53,967 nt of DNA from Candidatus Peregrinibacteria bacterium (lineage in GTDB: Bacteria; Patescibacteriota; Gracilibacteria; CAIRYL01). The notes below the pieces were generated by a model. It had not been told where the DNA came from and did no database searches. It worked only from the letters and a program-made list of their open reading frames with translations. The stretch spans positions 1 through 53,967 of the forward strand of contig JBAXIU010000003.1 of the NCBI GenBank assembly GCA_037138215.1. Reading direction: 5' to 3'. Made by a program: the position numbers and the translations under genes. This document shows, in pieces, positions 7,247 to 14,724 of the stretch; position 1 is the first letter of the stretch, and each line of letters begins with the position of its first letter.

Positions 7247-8749
7247 ATGTCTCCATTAAAACCTTTTTATATTACGACTTCCATTGCCTATGTAAATGGC
7301 GTTCCCCATGTGGGATTTGCCATGGAAAGTATTGAAGCCGATGTTTTAGCACGATGGGCACGCAAACAAGGACGAGAAACATTTTTTCTCACCGGAACTG
7401 ACGAGCACGGAAGCAAAGTGGCCAAAACCGCAAAAGAACGAGGAATTTTGCCGCAAGAACTCTGTGACGAAAACAGTGCGGAATTCCAAAAATTGGGAAA
7501 CGCACTTACGCTCTCAAACGACGATTTTATTCGCACGACAGATAAAGAAAGACATTGGACATCTGCTCAAAAAATTTGGGAAAAGCTGGCAGAAAATGGG
7601 GACTTAGAAAAACGGGCATATACCGCTCAGTATTGCAGTGGATGCGAAACATTTCTTACGGAAAAAGATTTAGTGGATGGACTTTGCCCTTTTCATAAAG
7701 TGGCGCCCGAAACCGTTTCAGAAGAAAATTATTTTTTTAAGCTTTCCAAATATTCCCAAGAAATTGCAGAACTGCTCCGCACGGACGCATTAAAAATTGT
7801 GCCCGATTTTAGAAAAAATGAGATTTTAAAAATGGCAGAGGAAGGATTTACTGATGTTTCTTTTTCTCGCCCGACCGAAAAAGTGAGTTGGGGAATTCCC
7901 GTTCCCGGAGACTTGTCTCAAACCATGTATGTGTGGTGTGATGCCCTCACAAATTATATTTCGGCATTGGGATATGGCAAAGAGGTAGAGCCGTTGCATG
8001 CAACGGCTCTACCGTTCCAAAAATTCTGGAATTCTGGCGAAGTGGTCCATGTCATTGGAAAAGATATTTTACGATTCCACGCGGGGATTTGGATTGGAAT
8101 GCTTCTTTCTGCCGGTATAAAAACGCCCGACAAAATTTTTGTGCACGGATTTCTTACCAGCGAAGGAGAAAAAATGAGTAAATCGCTCGGGAATGTGGTA
8201 GACCCGTTTTTGGAAGTAGAAAAATATGGAACAGATGCGCTGCGGTATTTTTTACTCCGAGAGGTTCCCGTAGGAAGAGATGCCGATTTTAGTCGCCAGA
8301 GATTTGAGGAAATTTACCAAGCGCATTTGGCAAACGGAATTGGAAATTTGTCATCTCGAGTTCATAAATTGTGCGAACGAAATTCGGTAGAGCCGTTGCA
8401 TGCAACGGCTCTACGCGACGATTTCACCCAAATAATCGCTAAAACCGAAAAAACCGTAACAGAAAAAATGGACGCATTTCTCATTCACGAAGCCATTCAA
8501 GAACTCTTTTTAGTGGTAGATTTTTGTGATAAACGCATGGACGAAGAAAAACCATGGCTTGCCAATGAAGATGGAACCGTAAAAATGGAACTTATGAAGT
8601 CTCTCCTTATTACCCTCCGATGGTTTGCAATGGAATTGGAACCCTTTTTGACCAATACGGCACAAAAAATGAAAAATATGTTTGGGGATAACGGGGAACC
8701 GTTGGGTGAAGGGCAAATGCTGTTTCCGAGGTTAGAGAAACTGGCGTAA
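7247..8749 (+). CDS. metG: Methionine--tRNA ligase (short form) carrying two in-frame REP insertions
   Basis: YVNGVPHVG, TGTDEHG, CSGC..CPFH knuckle, YVWCDAL, GKDILRFH, KMSKS. Confidence 0.97.
   Translation: MSPLKPFYITTSIAYVNGVPHVGFAMESIEADVLARWARKQGRETFFLTGTDEHGSKVAKTAKERGILPQELCDENSAEFQKLGNALTLSNDDFIRTTDKERHWTSAQKIWEKLAENGDLEKRAYTAQYCSGCETFLTEKDLVDGLCPFHKVAPETVSEENYFFKLSKYSQEIAELLRTDALKIVPDFRKNEILKMAEEGFTDVSFSRPTEKVSWGIPVPGDLSQTMYVWCDALTNYISALGYGKEVEPLHATALPFQKFWNSGEVVHVIGKDILRFHAGIWIGMLLSAGIKTPDKIFVHGFLTSEGEKMSKSLGNVVDPFLEVEKYGTDALRYFLLREVPVGRDADFSRQRFEEIYQAHLANGIGNLSSRVHKLCERNSVEPLHATALRDDFTQIIAKTEKTVTEKMDAFLIHEAIQELFLVVDFCDKRMDEEKPWLANEDGTVKMELMKSLLITLRWFAMELEPFLTNTAQKMKNMFGDNGEPLGEGQMLFPRLEKLA
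7985..8012. repeat. REP family A copy inside metG (encodes VEPLHATAL)
   Basis: Identical to 5676-5703; in frame at codon 247. Confidence 0.95.
8387..8414. repeat. REP family A copy inside metG (encodes VEPLHATAL)
   Basis: Identical to 5676-5703; in frame at codon 381. Confidence 0.95.
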
Positions 8750-8752
8750 TGT

Positions 8753-9538
8753 ATGCCCCATATCACCTTTCCCGTTGGCATTTCAATTGGTGAAAACTTT
8801 CTTCCCATTCATTTTTTCTTTGAAGTGCTCGCGTTTTATTTGGGGATTTCGTATTATTATCATTTACGCGCATCTCAAAAAGATCATTTTTCTGAATCGC
8901 AAAGACTCACGCTCCTCGTTTCAGCGTGTATCGGAGCACTTTTGGGCTCTCGTCTTTTAGCGGCACTAGAACACTACCAGTTTTTAGTAGAGCATTTTTC
9001 GTGGTTTTCTCTCACCCAATCTAAAACCATTGTGGGCGGCATTATTGGCGGGTGGATTGGTATTGAAACGGCAAAAAAATTTATGAAGATTACCACCTCC
9101 AGCGGTGACCTTTTCACTTTTCCGCTTATTTTTGCTATTATAGTGGGAAGAATTGGCTGTGCACTTACCGGTGTGTCGGATGGAACCGCGGGAGATCCAT
9201 CCGATTTGCCCTGGGCGTTTGACCAAGGCGATGGAATTGCACGGCACCCAACCGCACTGTACGAAATTTTATTCCTCGGTATTTTTTGGGCTATTTTATT
9301 ACTTTTAAAACAAAAATTTTCGCTCCAAAATGGAGATCTTTTTAAATTTTTTATGGTGGGCTACTCCCTGTGGAGAGTTCTCGTAGAATTTATAAAACCT
9401 GTTGATAGTCTTATTTTTGGATTATCCGCCATCCAAATTGCCTGCGTTTTTGTTCTTCTATATTATGTATGGGTTTTCATAAAACGATTTTATCCCCCTT
9501 TATGCCCGCACAAAGACCATACACCTACTATGACCTAA
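8753..9538 (+). CDS. Prolipoprotein diacylglyceryl transferase (Lgt)-family protein, divergent
   Basis: About 7 TM helices; GRIGC, HPTALYE and RVLVEFIK correspond to Lgt GRxGN, HPSQLYE and RF..EF.R. The usual SFHGG is replaced by TIVGG. Confidence 0.85.
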   Translation: MPHITFPVGISIGENFLPIHFFFEVLAFYLGISYYYHLRASQKDHFSESQRLTLLVSACIGALLGSRLLAALEHYQFLVEHFSWFSLTQSKTIVGGIIGGWIGIETAKKFMKITTSSGDLFTFPLIFAIIVGRIGCALTGVSDGTAGDPSDLPWAFDQGDGIARHPTALYEILFLGIFWAILLLLKQKFSLQNGDLFKFFMVGYSLWRVLVEFIKPVDSLIFGLSAIQIACVFVLLYYVWVFIKRFYPPLCPHKDHTPTMT

Positions 9539-10908
9539 CCATTAGCCTTTGCCCTACTTGTTTAAAACGGGTATATGGGAAAATTGTTTTTGAGAATGAC
9601 AAAGTGTTTATGCTCAAACACTGCAAAGAGCATGGGAGTTTTAAAGTGCTGATAGCCACAGATATTGAGTACTACAAAAAATGCCGACAATACGCCAAAA
9701 AAAGCGAAATGCCCTGCAAATTTAAAACCAAAGTGAAATACGGATGCCCGTATGATTGTGGGCTTTGTGAAGACCACGAGCAGCATTCGTGCTCTTCGGT
9801 CATCGAAGTGACTGATCGGTGTAATTTGAAATGTCCCACTTGTTATGCGTCTTCTTCTCCTACTTGTGGCGAACACCGCACGCTAGAAGAAATTGAGAAA
9901 ATGTTTGATATTATGGTAGAAAGCGAAGGCGAACCGGATGTCGTGCAGATCAGCGGAGGAGAGCCCACTATTCATCCTGATTTTTTTGCCATTTTAGATA
10001 TGGCGAAAACCAAACCTATTAAACACCTCCTGTTAAACACCAATGGCGTGCGCATTGCCACCGAAGAAGGTTTTGCAGAACGCCTTGCAACCTATATGCC
10101 CCAATTTGAGATTTATCTTCAGTGGGATAGCTTACGACCCGAAGTGCTGAAAAAATTTCGGGGAGCGGATCTTTCCGAAATCCGCAAAAAAGCGTTGGAA
10201 AAACTCAATGCCCTCAATCTCTCAACCACTCTGGTGGTGGTGGTACAAAAAGGCGCAAATGACGATGAGCTAGGGGAAATTGTTGAATTTGCAATGCAGC
10301 AGCCCTGCGTTCGAGGGATTACTTTTCAACCGGTACAATTTGCCGGAAGAAATGAAGACAGTACACCAGAAGACCGCATTACACCCACAGAAGTACGCCA
10401 GAAAATTATTGCGCAACAGAGCGTTTTTACTGCAAATGACCTTATTCCTGTTCCGTGCAACCCCGACACCCTCACAATGGCGTACGGGCTAAAAATCGGA
10501 GGATCTGTTCATGCACTTACAAGGTATATTGATCCGACCAAACTTTTGGAGGCATCCAAAAATACCATTGTGTTTGAGAGGGATGAACAGCTGAAAAAAA
10601 AGCTTATTGAACTGTTTTCTACGGGAAACTCTCCCGAAAGCTCATCCAAGATTTTTGGCAGTATGCTGTGCTGTTTGCCCAAAATAGTGGCACCAAAAAA
10701 CCTCAAATACGACAATATTTTCCGCATTCTTATTATGCACTTTCAAGACGCATACGATTTTGATGTGCGGGCGATTAAAAAGTCCTGCGTGCATATTGTG
10801 CATAAAGACGGGCGCATTATTCCTTTTGAAACCATGAACCTCTTCTACCGCAACAACGAAGATCTCCTCAAAACGCTCCAAAGAGAAGATGAGTCTTTTA
10901 CTTTTTAA
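9502..10908 (+). CDS. Radical SAM enzyme, Tes/GDGT-MAS (MJ0619)-like family
   Basis: N-terminal CPTC...CKEHG, GCPYDCGLCEDH...C, core CNLKCPTC, SGGEPT, C-terminal SCVH..DGRIIPF. Likely start ATG 9502. Confidence 0.85.
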   Translation: MPAQRPYTYYDLTISLCPTCLKRVYGKIVFENDKVFMLKHCKEHGSFKVLIATDIEYYKKCRQYAKKSEMPCKFKTKVKYGCPYDCGLCEDHEQHSCSSVIEVTDRCNLKCPTCYASSSPTCGEHRTLEEIEKMFDIMVESEGEPDVVQISGGEPTIHPDFFAILDMAKTKPIKHLLLNTNGVRIATEEGFAERLATYMPQFEIYLQWDSLRPEVLKKFRGADLSEIRKKALEKLNALNLSTTLVVVVQKGANDDELGEIVEFAMQQPCVRGITFQPVQFAGRNEDSTPEDRITPTEVRQKIIAQQSVFTANDLIPVPCNPDTLTMAYGLKIGGSVHALTRYIDPTKLLEASKNTIVFERDEQLKKKLIELFSTGNSPESSSKIFGSMLCCLPKIVAPKNLKYDNIFRILIMHFQDAYDFDVRAIKKSCVHIVHKDGRIIPFETMNLFYRNNEDLLKTLQREDESFTF

Positions 10909-10917
10909 CACTTTTTT

Positions 10918-11280
10918 ATGACAGATTTTGCAGAAGCAATGCAAGACATTCCACATACCCCAGAGATATCCGAAGAATCTTCTCCCCTAAAAAAAGAGAA
11001 AAAATTTCTTTGGAGGTTTTTTCAGTACTATTTTTTCGGCAGTATTGCCATGTATTTCTGTTTATATGCGAGGGTCTTCTCCGGTGATTTCGAAATTATT
11101 CTCATTTTTGCTCCCTTTGTAATCCCAACACTCGTTTCCATTTTTTACTTTTTTCGCGCCATTTACCTCTTGCTGGATCAGAATTTAGAAGCGTTTAAAT
11201 TTGCGCTACTGGTTATGATTATAAGCGCACTTATTGGGGCGGGCGTATGTGCTGGGAATATACAATTTTTGAGCTTTTAA
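10918..11280 (+). CDS. Small membrane protein with C-terminal IGAGVCxGN motif (paralog 1)
   Basis: Acidic N-terminus MTDFAEAMQDI, 3 hydrophobic segments, LIGAGVCAGNIQFL. Confidence 0.8.
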   Translation: MTDFAEAMQDIPHTPEISEESSPLKKEKKFLWRFFQYYFFGSIAMYFCLYARVFSGDFEIILIFAPFVIPTLVSIFYFFRAIYLLLDQNLEAFKFALLVMIISALIGAGVCAGNIQFLSF

Positions 11281-11312
11281 GCCTCTCTTACATAACCTTT
11301 TGTGATGAATAT

Positions 11313-11666
11313 ATGAAAGACTTTGCAGAAGCAATGCAAGACATTGCCCAACAACCAGAGGTGAATGAAGAAAATGCATCACTCACAAAAGAGAAAAAAT
11401 TGATGGGAAATATTTTAAAGTGCTATGGCCTATTTGTTGTGCTTTTTTGGGTATTATCTCCTGAGATTAATACTACTTACTTTCCACCAGTCGGGATCGC
11501 TTCATTCAGCCTTCCTTGTTTAGTTTCTGTTATTTATTTTTTTCGTATTGTATACTGCTTATTTCAAAAAAACTGGGAATCTTTTAAATTTTCAATCCTT
11601 ATTTTTTTTATGGGACTTATTATTGGCGCGGGAGTATGTTACGGAAATTTAACTTTTTTGGGGTAG
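11313..11666 (+). CDS. Small membrane protein with C-terminal IGAGVCxGN motif (paralog 2)
   Basis: Start ATG 11313 MKDFAEAMQDI matches paralog 1; IIGAGVCYGNLTFL. Confidence 0.8.
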   Translation: MKDFAEAMQDIAQQPEVNEENASLTKEKKLMGNILKCYGLFVVLFWVLSPEINTTYFPPVGIASFSLPCLVSVIYFFRIVYCLFQKNWESFKFSILIFFMGLIIGAGVCYGNLTFLG

Positions 11667-11793
11667 GTGCTCCGCTAAAATGTACCATAAATTATTCTCA
11701 AAACCGCTGTCACTTAATCTCCATGAACTCCAAAAAAATTCCTTGACTCTCGCCCTATAAAAGGCGTAAAAATACCCCCTTTTTTTGAATTTT

Positions 11794-13752
11794 ATGACCA
11801 AAGAAAGCCGACTATTACACAGATTTGTAAATGTTCCTCAATCAACTGCTACAGGGCATTCTCATTTAAATAAGATTCAGAGTGGGACAGGGGATCTCAC
11901 TGATACTCGAAATAAAGAGACCAATGCAAATTGGGACAAAGGGCTTACTGAAGGACTCGCAACGAGTGGAGGACTGTATATGCCAGAAGAAATTCAAACT
12001 CTTCCAGATGGTTTTATTGCGGAAACCCTTCCAACCCTCAATACCGCACAAATTGCCGCGGCGCTTTTGCGTCAGTTTATCCCCCGAGAAGCAATTGATG
12101 ATGCCACTCTTTCTTCCTTTACCGAACAGGCACTAGGCTTTGGAATCCCTCTGGAAGATATTACCAAGATGTTTAGCGAAGGAGAAAGTCCAGACAAGGT
12201 TTTTGTGGCGTGGCTAGACAGAGGGAAAACGGCGAGTTTTAAAGATTTTGCGGCGCAAACCATTGGACAGCTTATGGAATGGTGGTGCGAAAAAAATCAA
12301 ACTCCAAAAAATATCGTCGTGGCCACTTCTGGAGATACTGGAGTAGCTATTGCTCGAGCATTTGCCGGATCAAAATGGGTTACGGTTACAGTACTATATC
12401 CAGCAGATGGAGTTGCCGCACCGCAAGAAGCACAAATGATTGAGGTGGCACAAAAATATAAAAATATTCAGTGCTTGCCCTGTGCGGGAACATTTGACGA
12501 TGCCCAAGCACGGGCAAAAATTTTGCAACAAGCCCGAGATAAAAAAATTACAAAAGAAGAGCAAGAAAATCCCGATGAGAAAACGATTGAAACAGTAGCA
12601 GGAGAGATTCAAAAAATGTTGAAAGACACAGTAGGAGAAGAAATTAAACTGAACGAAGCAAAACGACTGGTAACCGAAACAAAAGAACTCGACCTCTCCA
12701 GCGCTAATTCTATTAATATTTGGCGTCTCATCCCCCAGATGACGCAATATTTTACGACCTACGCCAATCTCGTCAGGTCAGGACAAATAACCAATGGGCA
12801 AAAAATAGTGTTCGTTATTCCTACGGGAAATGTAGGGCATATTACCGCTGGACTTTTTGCCAAAAAATTAGGACTGCCGGTAGAAAAATTCGTGATGGCG
12901 ACGAATGAAAATAATATGATGCACAACCTGTTAGAAAATGGTGTATTACAGCAGGATGGATTTCATGCGACGGATGCAAATTCAATGGATATTGAAAAGC
13001 CGAGTAATTTAGAGCGCATTTTATATTTGGCACAGCAAGAAGCCGATCCAGATGTAACGGTAGACTACGCAGGACTGGCAAAAAAAATGGCAGAACAAGG
13101 AGCAATTCAGAATGGAATTGAGGTAAAAGACTTTGGAGTAACCGATGCCATGATGGCGTGGTTACGAGAAAATATTGTTTCTGCGTCCAGTACTGTAGAA
13201 GAGAGAAAAACTATTATAAAAGAAACCCACGAAAAAACAGGGGCATTACTGGAATGGCATGGCGCGGCGGGAGCAGTGGCAATACAAAAAGTACAAGAAA
13301 ATATTAAAGGCTTTGTAACGGTGCTCTTTGAAACTGCCGGAGTAGAAAAAGCAAAACCATGTTCTCTTGAGGAAGCAACCGGTATTCTAGAAATTCCAGA
13401 GGAATATAAAAATCCTGCAATGCAAGACGCCATGAATTTTGTTTTGGAAGGATCTGAAAAAAATGACCTTGCAGAAGCAACAAATGCCATGAGAGAAACA
13501 GTAGTAAACAGCATTATGGGAATTTTTGACGCTCTTCAAAATATCGCGCAAGAATCAGCAGAGAGAAGGGAATCCCCTCTTTCTCTCTTAAACTCTCTAT
13601 CCGCCAGTGGATATGCAATAGTTGTGGAAGAACAAGAAAAGATTCCTCAGTTTTCCTTTGCATCCGAAAAGAATATGATGACCTTAAGAGAAAACCTTTT
13701 GAACAGGCTTTCTCATAGAGACTATTTGGCATTTATTGAGAGGACAGAGTAA
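11794..13752 (+). CDS. thrC: Threonine synthase-like PLP enzyme with extensions
   Basis: GLATSGGLYMP, TASFKD (PLP Lys), ATSGDTG, SANSINIWRL, PTGN, NSMDI.KPSN; about 650 aa. Confidence 0.8.
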   Translation: MTKESRLLHRFVNVPQSTATGHSHLNKIQSGTGDLTDTRNKETNANWDKGLTEGLATSGGLYMPEEIQTLPDGFIAETLPTLNTAQIAAALLRQFIPREAIDDATLSSFTEQALGFGIPLEDITKMFSEGESPDKVFVAWLDRGKTASFKDFAAQTIGQLMEWWCEKNQTPKNIVVATSGDTGVAIARAFAGSKWVTVTVLYPADGVAAPQEAQMIEVAQKYKNIQCLPCAGTFDDAQARAKILQQARDKKITKEEQENPDEKTIETVAGEIQKMLKDTVGEEIKLNEAKRLVTETKELDLSSANSINIWRLIPQMTQYFTTYANLVRSGQITNGQKIVFVIPTGNVGHITAGLFAKKLGLPVEKFVMATNENNMMHNLLENGVLQQDGFHATDANSMDIEKPSNLERILYLAQQEADPDVTVDYAGLAKKMAEQGAIQNGIEVKDFGVTDAMMAWLRENIVSASSTVEERKTIIKETHEKTGALLEWHGAAGAVAIQKVQENIKGFVTVLFETAGVEKAKPCSLEEATGILEIPEEYKNPAMQDAMNFVLEGSEKNDLAEATNAMRETVVNSIMGIFDALQNIAQESAERRESPLSLLNSLSASGYAIVVEEQEKIPQFSFASEKNMMTLRENLLNRLSHRDYLAFIERTE

Positions 13753-13870: not shown

Positions 13871-14143
13871 ATGATTTTTGATTGGAACGAGGTAAAAAAT
13901 GAGCTTTTAAAGCAAGACCGAAATATTTCTTTTGAGGAGGTGGTTATTGCTCTTCAGGATGAAAAAAAATTCTCTATTGCGAAATACCCTAATCCTGAAA
14001 AATATCCGAATCAAAAAATGTACATTCTCTCTCTTCAAGGTTATACCTATATGGTCCCGTTCGTTGATACCGAAAATGTGAGATACATAACAGGCATAAT
14101 TTCTCCTTTTTCTTGCTCCCTATTTCCTTTTTTGCCACAATAG
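13871..14143 (+). pseudogene. BrnT-family toxin, apparently 3'-truncated or degenerate; no antitoxin seen
   Basis: FDWNEVKNELLK.DRNISFEEV...YPNQ...YMVPFV matches BrnT-like proteins, but the usual LKTI.PSRK C-terminus is missing. Confidence 0.6.
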
Positions 14144-14148
14144 TTTCC

Positions 14149-14724
14149 GTGATTCAAAAATTCCCCATTCTTTTTTCGGCGCTTTTTCTCTTACTTTTTG
14201 CAGGATGTGGCACTGGAAGTGCTACGCCTTCAGTAGATCCTTCTTTGGCATTTGAAGGAAAAGCGTTTACCATTGGAATTCCCACTAACTGGGAAGTGTT
14301 TCCAGATACCGTTTTAGCCGGAAAAGGCGTAGATTTTGGAGCAAGAGACGCCAATGGCTTTGGAAAAATTGAAACGGTTATTGCGGTTACTTCGGAAGAT
14401 ATTCCCAATGGAGCCCCATTAGACCGCTTTACAACTCAATCTCTTGAAAATATCCGAAGACGATCACAGAATTTCCAAAAACAGTCCGAAGAGCCATTGA
14501 ATTTAGACGGGGTGCCTGCTACGCTGGTCCGGTACACGGATAGAAATGTGGTTGATCTTTCACAACTCCAGTTTTCCAGCATTTTTGCGGTCCATAATGG
14601 AAAAGCCTTTGTGGCAGTATTATCTATGGATTACGCCAAAACAGAGAGTGAAAAAACAAAACTGGAAGAAATTCTCAAGTCATTCCGGATAAAGGGGACT
14701 AGCCCCTCTCCCTCGTCTTCATAA
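14149..14724 (+). CDS. PsbP/DcrB-like lipoprotein
   Basis: GTG start, lipobox LLFAGC, FTIGIPTNW, LDGVPA, ILKSFRI C-terminus. Confidence 0.7.
   Translation: MIQKFPILFSALFLLLFAGCGTGSATPSVDPSLAFEGKAFTIGIPTNWEVFPDTVLAGKGVDFGARDANGFGKIETVIAVTSEDIPNGAPLDRFTTQSLENIRRRSQNFQKQSEEPLNLDGVPATLVRYTDRNVVDLSQLQFSSIFAVHNGKAFVAVLSMDYAKTESEKTKLEEILKSFRIKGTSPSPSSS

Follow-up and report, generated by a model that had tools for sequence, protein, structure and literature searches.

Why does a bacterium with a reduced genome carry a paralog of the prolipoprotein transferase Lgt directly before a relative of the archaeal tetraether lipid synthase Tes (GDGT-MAS), and on what would the two enzymes act? The question is raised by positions 8753-11666 of contig JBAXIU010000003.1 from a Candidatus Peregrinibacteria bacterium (assembly GCA_037138215.1); the window referred to below is the whole stretch of 53,967 nucleotides that was analysed. 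Four co-oriented genes are located here, encoding an Lgt-family transferase, an enzyme of the radical SAM (S-adenosylmethionine) type, and two paralogous small membrane proteins. Neighborhood surveys and phylogenetic trees show the four genes to be one instance of a cassette that is widespread but unnamed and has three parts, and these parts have been inherited and moved together as a conserved, co-evolving unit.

Recurrence of the gene cassette

Relatives of the radical SAM protein were surveyed with one genome per species, and the best 80 of 188 relatives were kept, comprising 19 bacterial proteins at 54-83% identity and 61 archaeal-type proteins at ~29%. The 19 bacterial loci belong to Chitinophaga, Xanthocytophaga, Flavobacterium, Aquimarina, Duganella, Acidobacteriaceae, Moraxellaceae, Fusobacteriaceae, and a Peribacteria genome. 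At 16 of them a gene for the Lgt paralog (36-46% identity) adjoins the radical SAM gene on the same strand; beside the archaeal Tes-type genes it was found at 0 of 61 loci. Two of the three bacterial loci without the paralog are cut off upstream, and in the third the radical SAM gene is itself incomplete.

The converse survey, which started from the Lgt paralog, covered 301 sampled Bacteroidota genomes, 25 of which carry the paralog, in 26 copies. For 22 of these copies a radical SAM gene lies within 6 kb on the same strand, directly downstream in 20 cases and, as a 40%-identical enzyme, upstream in two. Counted by genome, 24 have both genes, one has the Lgt paralog only, two have a radical SAM-like gene only, and 274 have neither. 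The genes of the two radical SAM-only genomes (G449, C81:13131-14072; G474, C91:56878-57807) match at 35% identity over the N-terminal ~310 residues only and may represent another subfamily.

The third part is a small ORF (open reading frame) on the same strand with a C-terminal helix and a Cys box, which a fixed rule located at 21 of the 22 pair loci; at the 22nd the box lies 27 residues from the C-terminus. Similarly, a Cys-box small ORF was present at 15 of 18 loci in the radical SAM-side set. The trees of the Lgt paralogs and of the radical SAM proteins are largely congruent. Gene order varies among four arrangements, the remaining neighbors are lineage-specific housekeeping genes, and the trio recurs with different flanks in Bacteroidota, Acidobacteriota, Pseudomonadota, and the window's phylum. 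An earlier note on this DNA, made from its letters alone, had asked for such a neighborhood survey, and by the counts given here (16/19 bacterial loci, both enzyme genes in 24/301 genomes, the small ORF at 21/22 pair loci) the gene types do co-occur.

In the window, the Lgt-family paralog, a membrane transferase of 261 amino acids recognized by Pfam (PF01790) and by its clade in the tree, is encoded at 8753..9538 (+). An upstream ORF of 500 amino acids (7247-8749) stops 3 nucleotides before its start. The radical SAM gene (9502..10908, +) encodes 468 amino acids and is assigned to the Tes/GDGT-MAS-TrsS superfamily by its Pfam, NCBIfam, and 7TOL matches. An automatic ORF list places its start at 9469, but the ATG at 9502 is preferred because of the starts of the homologues and a stored 468-residue copy of the window protein. 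With this start the two enzyme genes overlap by 37 nucleotides. Gaps of 9 and 32 nucleotides precede the genes for small membrane protein 1 (10918..11280, +; 120 amino acids; identified as an ORF and by alignment) and small membrane protein 2 (11313..11666, +; 117 amino acids; ATG at 11313). These coordinates agree with the overlap, the gaps, and the tight co-oriented packing described in the earlier note. Tight packing prevails throughout the window, and a promoter and terminator scan did not set the four genes off, its signals being no different from those of shuffled sequence. DNA near-identical to window positions 8600-11800 was present in four lake-water metagenome runs, three of which are a possible source of the assembly and none of which is RNA.

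Assignment of the two enzymes

The radical SAM protein matches PF04055 and the HMPTM/Tes zinc-ribbon domain PF23545. Its closest solved structure is that of GDGT-MAS (7TOL; E-value 2.4e-65, residues 23-463). Among the NCBIfam models, TrsS (NF045646) fits best, with 333 bits versus a cut-off of 490 and a match over profile positions 3-439 of 441. The Tes model (NF045702) gives 278 bits versus a cut-off of 450, and only its N-terminal profile positions 2-312 of 486 are matched. The other cassette radical SAM enzymes that were scored (n = 7) show the same pattern, with 308-368 bits for TrsS, likewise under 490, and a Thermoplasmata control (L020) passes the Tes model with 574 bits over positions 1-485. 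As it stays below both cut-offs, the cassette enzyme falls in neither named family; judged by profile scores and alignment, it is an unnamed sister clade within the Tes/GDGT-MAS-TrsS superfamily, nearer to TrsS. The earlier note had ascribed the architecture of Tes/GDGT-MAS to it. The superfamily, the match to 7TOL, and the motifs stand, whereas membership of Tes proper does not, given the failed cut-off and a differing C-terminal domain.

The window protein conserves a rubredoxin-like site of three Cys and one His (CxxC..CxxH), the motif CPYDCGLCxDH, the radical SAM cluster motif CxxxCxxC (9820..9843, +; located by alignment to 7TOL and 19 homologues), and RIIPF. CPYDCGLCxDH and CxxxCxxC are present in 13/13 aligned bacterial homologues and the rubredoxin-like site in 12/12 with an intact N-terminus, homologue L014 being cut there and left out of this count. 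The rubredoxin-like site, the [4Fe-4S]N site of three Cys and one His, and CxxxCxxC are all described for GDGT-MAS (Lloyd 2022, PMC9433317). A further cluster of Tes, [4Fe-4S]C, is ligated by three Cys and a labile Met and holds the lipid radical (Lloyd 2022, PMC9433317; 2026 lipid radical SAM review). The window protein retains the position of the Met that, in GDGT-MAS, ligates this C-terminal cluster, and two of the Cys positions seen in the C-terminal domain of archaeal sequences have counterparts. The domain as a whole is shorter than in archaeal Tes and is without two insertions and the C-terminal tail. Selenocysteine, suspected in one homologue on account of two TGA codons, was rejected, as both are located upstream of its true start; the window gene has no in-frame stop pointing to selenocysteine.

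The Lgt paralog scores 86.5 bits against Pfam LGT (PF01790; cut-off 24.9) and stays below all four NCBIfam Lgt equivalog models, including TIGR00544 and NF000778 (14-56 bits versus cut-offs of 119-636). On these scores, it is a member of the Pfam family but not an Lgt equivalog. In the tree, 37 cassette-type proteins (that of the window and 36 relatives) form one clade apart from 10 ordinary Lgt proteins, with an SH-aLRT (Shimodaira-Hasegawa-like approximate likelihood ratio test) support of 100. Five other cassette-bearing genomes were searched, and all five also carry ordinary Lgt genes.

The paralog was compared with E. coli Lgt by alignment, and 63 paralog sequences were aligned with one another. 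The clade keeps counterparts of E. coli D129, G142, R143, G145, E202, Y235, R239, and E243, the last as Glu or Asp. G132, R133, G135, and C136, plus R208 and Y204, are invariant among the 63 paralogs. The stretch G132-R133-I-G135-C136 (9146..9160, +) was identified by alignment to E. coli Lgt as corresponding to the beginning of the Lgt signature motif (G142-R143-L-G145-N146 in E. coli). Within the full signature (G142-R-L-G-N146-F-I-N-G-E151-L-W-G154) the paralogs keep G, R, and G and have a 3-residue insertion after the Cys at the N146 position; an acidic residue lies near this insertion, with an ambiguous alignment to E151. R143 is essential in E. coli Lgt, and R143 and R239 are located at the transfer site (Mao 2016, PMC4728403). 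Given the conserved counterparts, these two Arg included, Lgt chemistry is plausibly retained; the catalytic center looks kept and the substrate recognition changed. A Cys at the N146 position also occurs in some higher-scoring proteins of the ordinary type, from Chitinophaga (L090, L093) and Acidobacteriaceae (L089), and the two Chitinophaga proteins have a long insertion after helix 1.

A conserved cysteine in the small membrane proteins

Small proteins 1 and 2 are 43% identical (51/119 residues, E-value 1e-32) and end in a common nine-residue motif, so that their description as paralogs in the earlier note is borne out. The Cys of this motif is residue 111 in protein 1 and residue 109 in protein 2. 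The Cys box of protein 1 (G-A-G-V-C, residues 107-111) is encoded at 11236..11250 (+), as read from the sequence and the small-protein alignment; that of protein 2 (G-A-G-V-C; 11625..11639, +) was located by comparison of the paralogs and by the same alignment. G107, G109, V110, and C111 are invariant in this alignment. None of 12 small proteins reached a cut-off in searches of Pfam and NCBIfam, and the matches of small protein 1 in a protein atlas were confined to clusters without a name (best 0.91) and to generic look-alikes with helices.

The small ORFs of the cassettes lie on the same strand as the other genes, encode 56-149 amino acids with 2-3 hydrophobic helices, and occur in 1-4 copies per cassette. 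The one feature conserved among them is the box, which has the pattern G-x-[G/S]-hydrophobic-Cys and closes a membrane helix. It is located near the C-terminus in Bacteroidota and the window's relatives, and in most lineages 2-13 residues from the C-terminus. In Acidobacteriaceae it follows the first helix, and 2-4 tandem small copies lie between the two enzyme genes; in Duganella it is found mid-protein. The 'C-terminal Cys' of the earlier note thus holds for most lineages but not for these two, and its conservation in homologues is confirmed, as the Cys is invariant in the alignment and present in every listed cassette-linked small ORF. The tails that follow the Cys are short in most lineages, and they are not conserved. 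By a crude positive-inside count, the Cys would face outward in 46 of 51 small ORFs, one of the 51 being a DUF4395 protein caught by the rule. With 1-4 copies and conservation confined to the box, the small proteins suit substrates rather than subunits. One cassette locus in the window's phylum (L152, 7352-8381) carries a tandem pair of small paralogs, of which one bears the Cys box and the other ends without any Cys.

Host genome, occurrence, and a variant cassette

The source genome has a size of 1.44 Mb and is 98.6% complete. No match was found in it to PF01066 (CDP-alcohol phosphatidyltransferase), PF00109 (ketoacyl synthase), or PF01553 (PlsC-type acyltransferase); the same three-family searches gave matches in 10-14 of 14 control genomes. 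This supports the remark in the earlier note that the lineage generally lacks lipid synthesis, and the cell probably depends on outside lipids. With lipid-synthesis genes not recognizable, the lipid for the cassette would be scavenged.

Signal peptidase II (LspA) and an ordinary Lgt (215 bits) are also encoded in the source genome, apart from the cassette. In a 203-residue ORF of the window (14113-14724, +), a hydrophobic stretch at the N-terminus is followed by a lipobox-like motif of the ordinary kind, in agreement with these two genes. Furthermore, a third, degenerate Lgt-family ORF was found (contig C9; L153 1966-2820, minus strand; 284 amino acids, Pfam 65 bits). It has a Glu at the position of the essential R143 of E. 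coli and a very long tree branch, and it adjoins a 138-residue membrane protein with Cys-rich zinc-ribbon-like motifs.

Among 301 sampled genomes of the window's phylum, the enzyme turned up in two, one being the source genome, and the search of one other genome from the source family gave no match. The only other genome of this phylum sample with the cassette (G072, locus L152) has 2.1 Mb and is 89% complete. The cassette is a sporadic accessory in the phylum. Compared with Bacteroidota, the enzyme of the window is 65-69% identical and the Lgt paralog 39-50%.

A variant cassette is present in two Bacteroidota genomes (L149, 3473-6943; L151, 3518-7099). It consists, in this order, of a radical SAM enzyme (40% identical to that of the window), an ICMT-family methyltransferase, a DUF4395 membrane protein, the Lgt paralog, and a small Cys-box protein. 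In L149 a gene for an Mrp/NUBPL-type Fe-S carrier follows the variant cassette. A search seeded with the variant enzyme gave, among its best 120 matches, no protein named TrsS; by their names, the relatives in this set belong to Prevotellaceae, Chlorobiales, and several bacteria of candidate phyla. The source records further label close homologues of both enzymes as coming from DPANN archaea (Pacearchaeota, Woesearchaeota) and Leptospirales. The annotations there are generic, namely 'prolipoprotein diacylglyceryl transferase', 'radical SAM protein', '7,8-dihydro-6-hydroxymethylpterin dimethyltransferase', and 'tetraether lipid synthase'.

Possible functions of the cassette

The function that we favor, and to which we give close to an even chance, is that the cassette lipidates the boxed Cys by means of the Lgt paralog and that the radical SAM enzyme remodels the lipid tails. 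The Lgt paralog would take a diacylglycerol-type lipid from a phospholipid and attach it to the boxed Cys through a thioether, in the manner of Lgt and lipoboxes. Either prior to this transfer or following it, the radical SAM enzyme would carry out a Tes-type hydrogen abstraction at the hydrocarbon tail ends, and the resulting C-C (or C-S) link would yield a cross-linked, macrocyclic, or membrane-spanning anchor. This proposal is based on the retained Arg pair, the lipobox-like Cys box on the predicted outer face, the substrate-like variability of the small proteins, the structural match of the radical SAM protein to a lipid enzyme, and the ICMT gene of the variant. A more specific proposal, unlikely in exactly this form, is a new type of protein lipidation, in which the dedicated paralog would add diacylglycerol to the Cys box of a small carrier protein and the radical SAM enzyme would then connect the tail ends, either with one another or with a lipid from the opposite leaflet, giving a macrocyclic or membrane-spanning anchor.

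Several observations weigh against the proposed lipidation and tail remodelling. On the side of the transferase, the paralog is without H103 of the HGGL motif, its position being Val, Met, or Ala across the clade, and without Y26, which is Phe or another residue across the clade. Neither residue is dispensable in E. coli Lgt, and H103 has been proposed as the lipobox site (Mao 2016, PMC4728403). Furthermore, in the paralog N146 is replaced by an invariant Cys and R246 by Lys, the latter replacement (R246K) being present in a functional Bacteroides Lgt as well (PMC13251419). With these changes, the paralog might have no activity or a different one. The box, too, departs from the standard lipobox. 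The latter is [LVI][ASTVI][GAS]C after an N-terminal signal helix (PMC12462473), whereas the box has its small residue at -2 instead of -1, where a bulky hydrophobic residue is usual, and lies mostly at the end of the last helix and not the first. Regarding the radical SAM enzyme, Glu or Asp takes the place of Cys at the archaeal 'PFC' motif in the bacterial clade, and a new CC pair elsewhere in the C-terminal domain is invariant in 14 aligned bacterial sequences. As this domain differs, Tes-type coupling on a C-terminal cluster is not assured. The enzyme would also be cytoplasmic and the Cys is predicted on the outer face, which is a problem for the order of steps and the route of access. Finally, two points concern the surveys. 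A radical SAM gene within 6 kb is lacking for 4 of the 26 paralog copies; the enzyme is encoded elsewhere in two of the genomes concerned, next to the other copy in one, and was not found with this query in one. The Cys-box rule, which selected 26 of 123 nearby small ORFs versus 1 of 935 other small ORFs at the same loci, was written after the pattern had been seen and applied to related genomes, so that the enrichment is only indicative.

The alternatives were ranked by plausibility. The strongest of them, a serious candidate though on balance improbable, is that both enzymes act on free lipids. Tes-like tail coupling would then be combined with the transfer of a glycerolipid to a non-protein acceptor, and the small proteins would serve as scaffolds, chaperones, or regulators, with the Cys at most a transient carrier. 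Free lipids are what the Tes family works on, and binding of bacterial diacyl phospholipids is documented for GDGT-MAS (Lloyd 2022, PMC9433317). The loss of the His proposed to bind the peptide points in the same direction, as does the variant cassette: ICMT-family enzymes methylate lipids too, and the variant protein also matches PEMT and, weakly, a lipid A phosphate methyltransferase model. This alternative is at odds, however, with small proteins whose sole conserved feature is a lipobox-like Cys box at the membrane face on which Lgt works, the active site of Lgt being periplasmic (Mao 2016, PMC4728403). The box also shifts its place within the protein yet keeps its form, and 1-4 copies would be unusual for fixed subunits.

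Less probable still, and doubtful in our view, is a lipopeptide pathway resembling those of RiPPs, peptides that are made by the ribosome and modified after translation. In this case the small proteins would act as precursors; their peptide would be modified at or near the Cys by the radical SAM enzyme (thioether or C-C), the paralog would lipidate it, and cleavage would free the lipidated tail. Tandem small ORFs of variable copy number with one conserved Cys beside a radical SAM gene are indeed a maturase-type arrangement, the tail after the Cys is mostly short, and signal peptidase II is available in the source genome. The enzyme itself, by contrast, has no SPASM or other peptide-recognition domain; maturase models match its radical SAM core only, with 36-62 bits versus cut-offs of 340-850, and its nearest solved relative is a lipid enzyme. 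Neither the unconserved tails nor the N-terminal box of Acidobacteriaceae fits precursor peptides, and the Cys is predicted on the side opposite to a cytoplasmic enzyme.

It is very improbable that the radical SAM enzyme is a bulk synthase of iso-diabolic acid or branched GDGT (glycerol dialkyl glycerol tetraether)-type lipids with incidental neighbors. Such a role was proposed for bacterial Tes homologues, including that of one Acidobacteriaceae species (Zeng 2022, PMC8941075), and Acidobacteriaceae do carry the radical SAM clade. The available text of Sahonero-Canavesi 2022 (PMC13159169), on the other hand, reports no Tes homologue detected in the screened producers of diabolic or iso-diabolic acid outside Acidobacteria, and Tes homologues in only 3 of 14 iso-diabolic-acid-producing acidobacterial genomes. 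The cassette occurs, moreover, in a 1.44-Mb genome without matches to the three lipid-synthesis families, and the co-occurrence survey speaks against incidental neighbors. Chance adjacency of unrelated genes in a compact genome, for which the tight packing of the window and the absence of delimiting promoter or terminator signals above chance could be cited, is excluded for practical purposes by the same survey, with the trio in four phyla, other flanks and orders, and genome counts of 24 with both genes, one with the paralog only, two with the radical SAM gene only, and 274 with neither.

Relation to earlier work and significance

No description linking an Lgt paralog with a Tes-like radical SAM enzyme was found in the literature searched, a search that did not extend to the gene context of TrsS or to the supplementary trees of Zeng and Lloyd; an earlier description of the cassette in print cannot be excluded. 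Bacterial Tes homologues have been given different readings. Branched GDGT synthesis was suggested for them (Zeng 2022, PMC8941075), their roles were left open (Lloyd 2022, PMC9433317), and they were reported not to track membrane-spanning lipids (Sahonero-Canavesi 2022, PMC13159169). They are without a function in the accessible parts of the 2026 lipid radical SAM review and a 2026 branched-GDGT paper. Lgt is not mentioned in the accessible parts of the former or of Sahonero-Canavesi 2022 (PMC13159169). A 2026 mBio survey of Lgt (PMC13251419) lists ~1,300 genomes with two lgt copies, and its accessible text leaves radical SAM genes unmentioned.

With a large clade of bacterial Tes homologues tied to an Lgt paralog and to Cys-box proteins, the question of their role becomes testable, and many 'second lgt' copies gain a context. 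The cassette is unexpected in a reduced genome without recognizable lipid synthesis, where it points to the remodelling of scavenged lipids. Tes-like genes serve as markers for the sources of palaeoclimate lipid biomarkers, and the finding bears on this work. If the macrocyclic or membrane-spanning protein anchor were real, it would provide the first function for the large bacterial 'Tes homologue' clade, and the homologues in Acidobacteriaceae, Bacteroidota, and tiny symbiotic lineages would not be markers of bulk tetraether synthesis.

Comparison with known systems

Compared with Lgt of E. coli (PDB 5AZB), the paralog belongs to the same Pfam family and keeps counterparts of the eight residues listed above, and its presumed acceptor is likewise a Cys after a hydrophobic helix on the outer membrane face. 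It differs from Lgt in forming a separate clade (SH-aLRT 100) that is additional to ordinary Lgt in the same genomes, in lacking H103 and Y26, in having Cys for N146 and Lys for R246, and in scoring far under the NCBIfam cut-offs. The presumed acceptor box differs as well, with Gly at -2 and a usually bulky residue at -1, and it is carried by small polytopic proteins encoded next to the enzyme.

With Tes/GDGT-MAS (MJ0619, PDB 7TOL) the cassette radical SAM enzyme shares the rubredoxin-like, N-terminal cluster, and radical SAM motifs and the Met position. Among the best 80 of 188 relatives it is only ~29% identical to the archaeal ones, and it reaches 278 of the 450 bits needed for the Tes model. 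Its C-terminal domain is without the two insertions and the tail and has another Cys pattern, and its link to an Lgt paralog has no counterpart at the 61 archaeal Tes-type loci of that set. TrsS, a radical SAM (seleno)protein reportedly named by Haft and Tolstoy in 2025, is the best-scoring curated model for the window enzyme and matches it end to end, whereas all 8 bacterial cassette enzymes tested (308-368 bits) fall below its cut-off of 490.

In the eukaryotic CaaX pathway, a Cys near the C-terminus is S-lipidated, the tail is removed, and the carboxyl group is methylated by ICMT. The cassette is unlike this pathway in that its transferase is an Lgt homologue and not a prenyltransferase, no protease is conserved in it, the box is N-terminal in Acidobacteriaceae, and ICMT is absent from the window cassette. 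It resembles the pathway in the location of its Cys box, mostly 2-13 residues from the C-terminus, and in the ICMT-family gene of the variant in two genomes.

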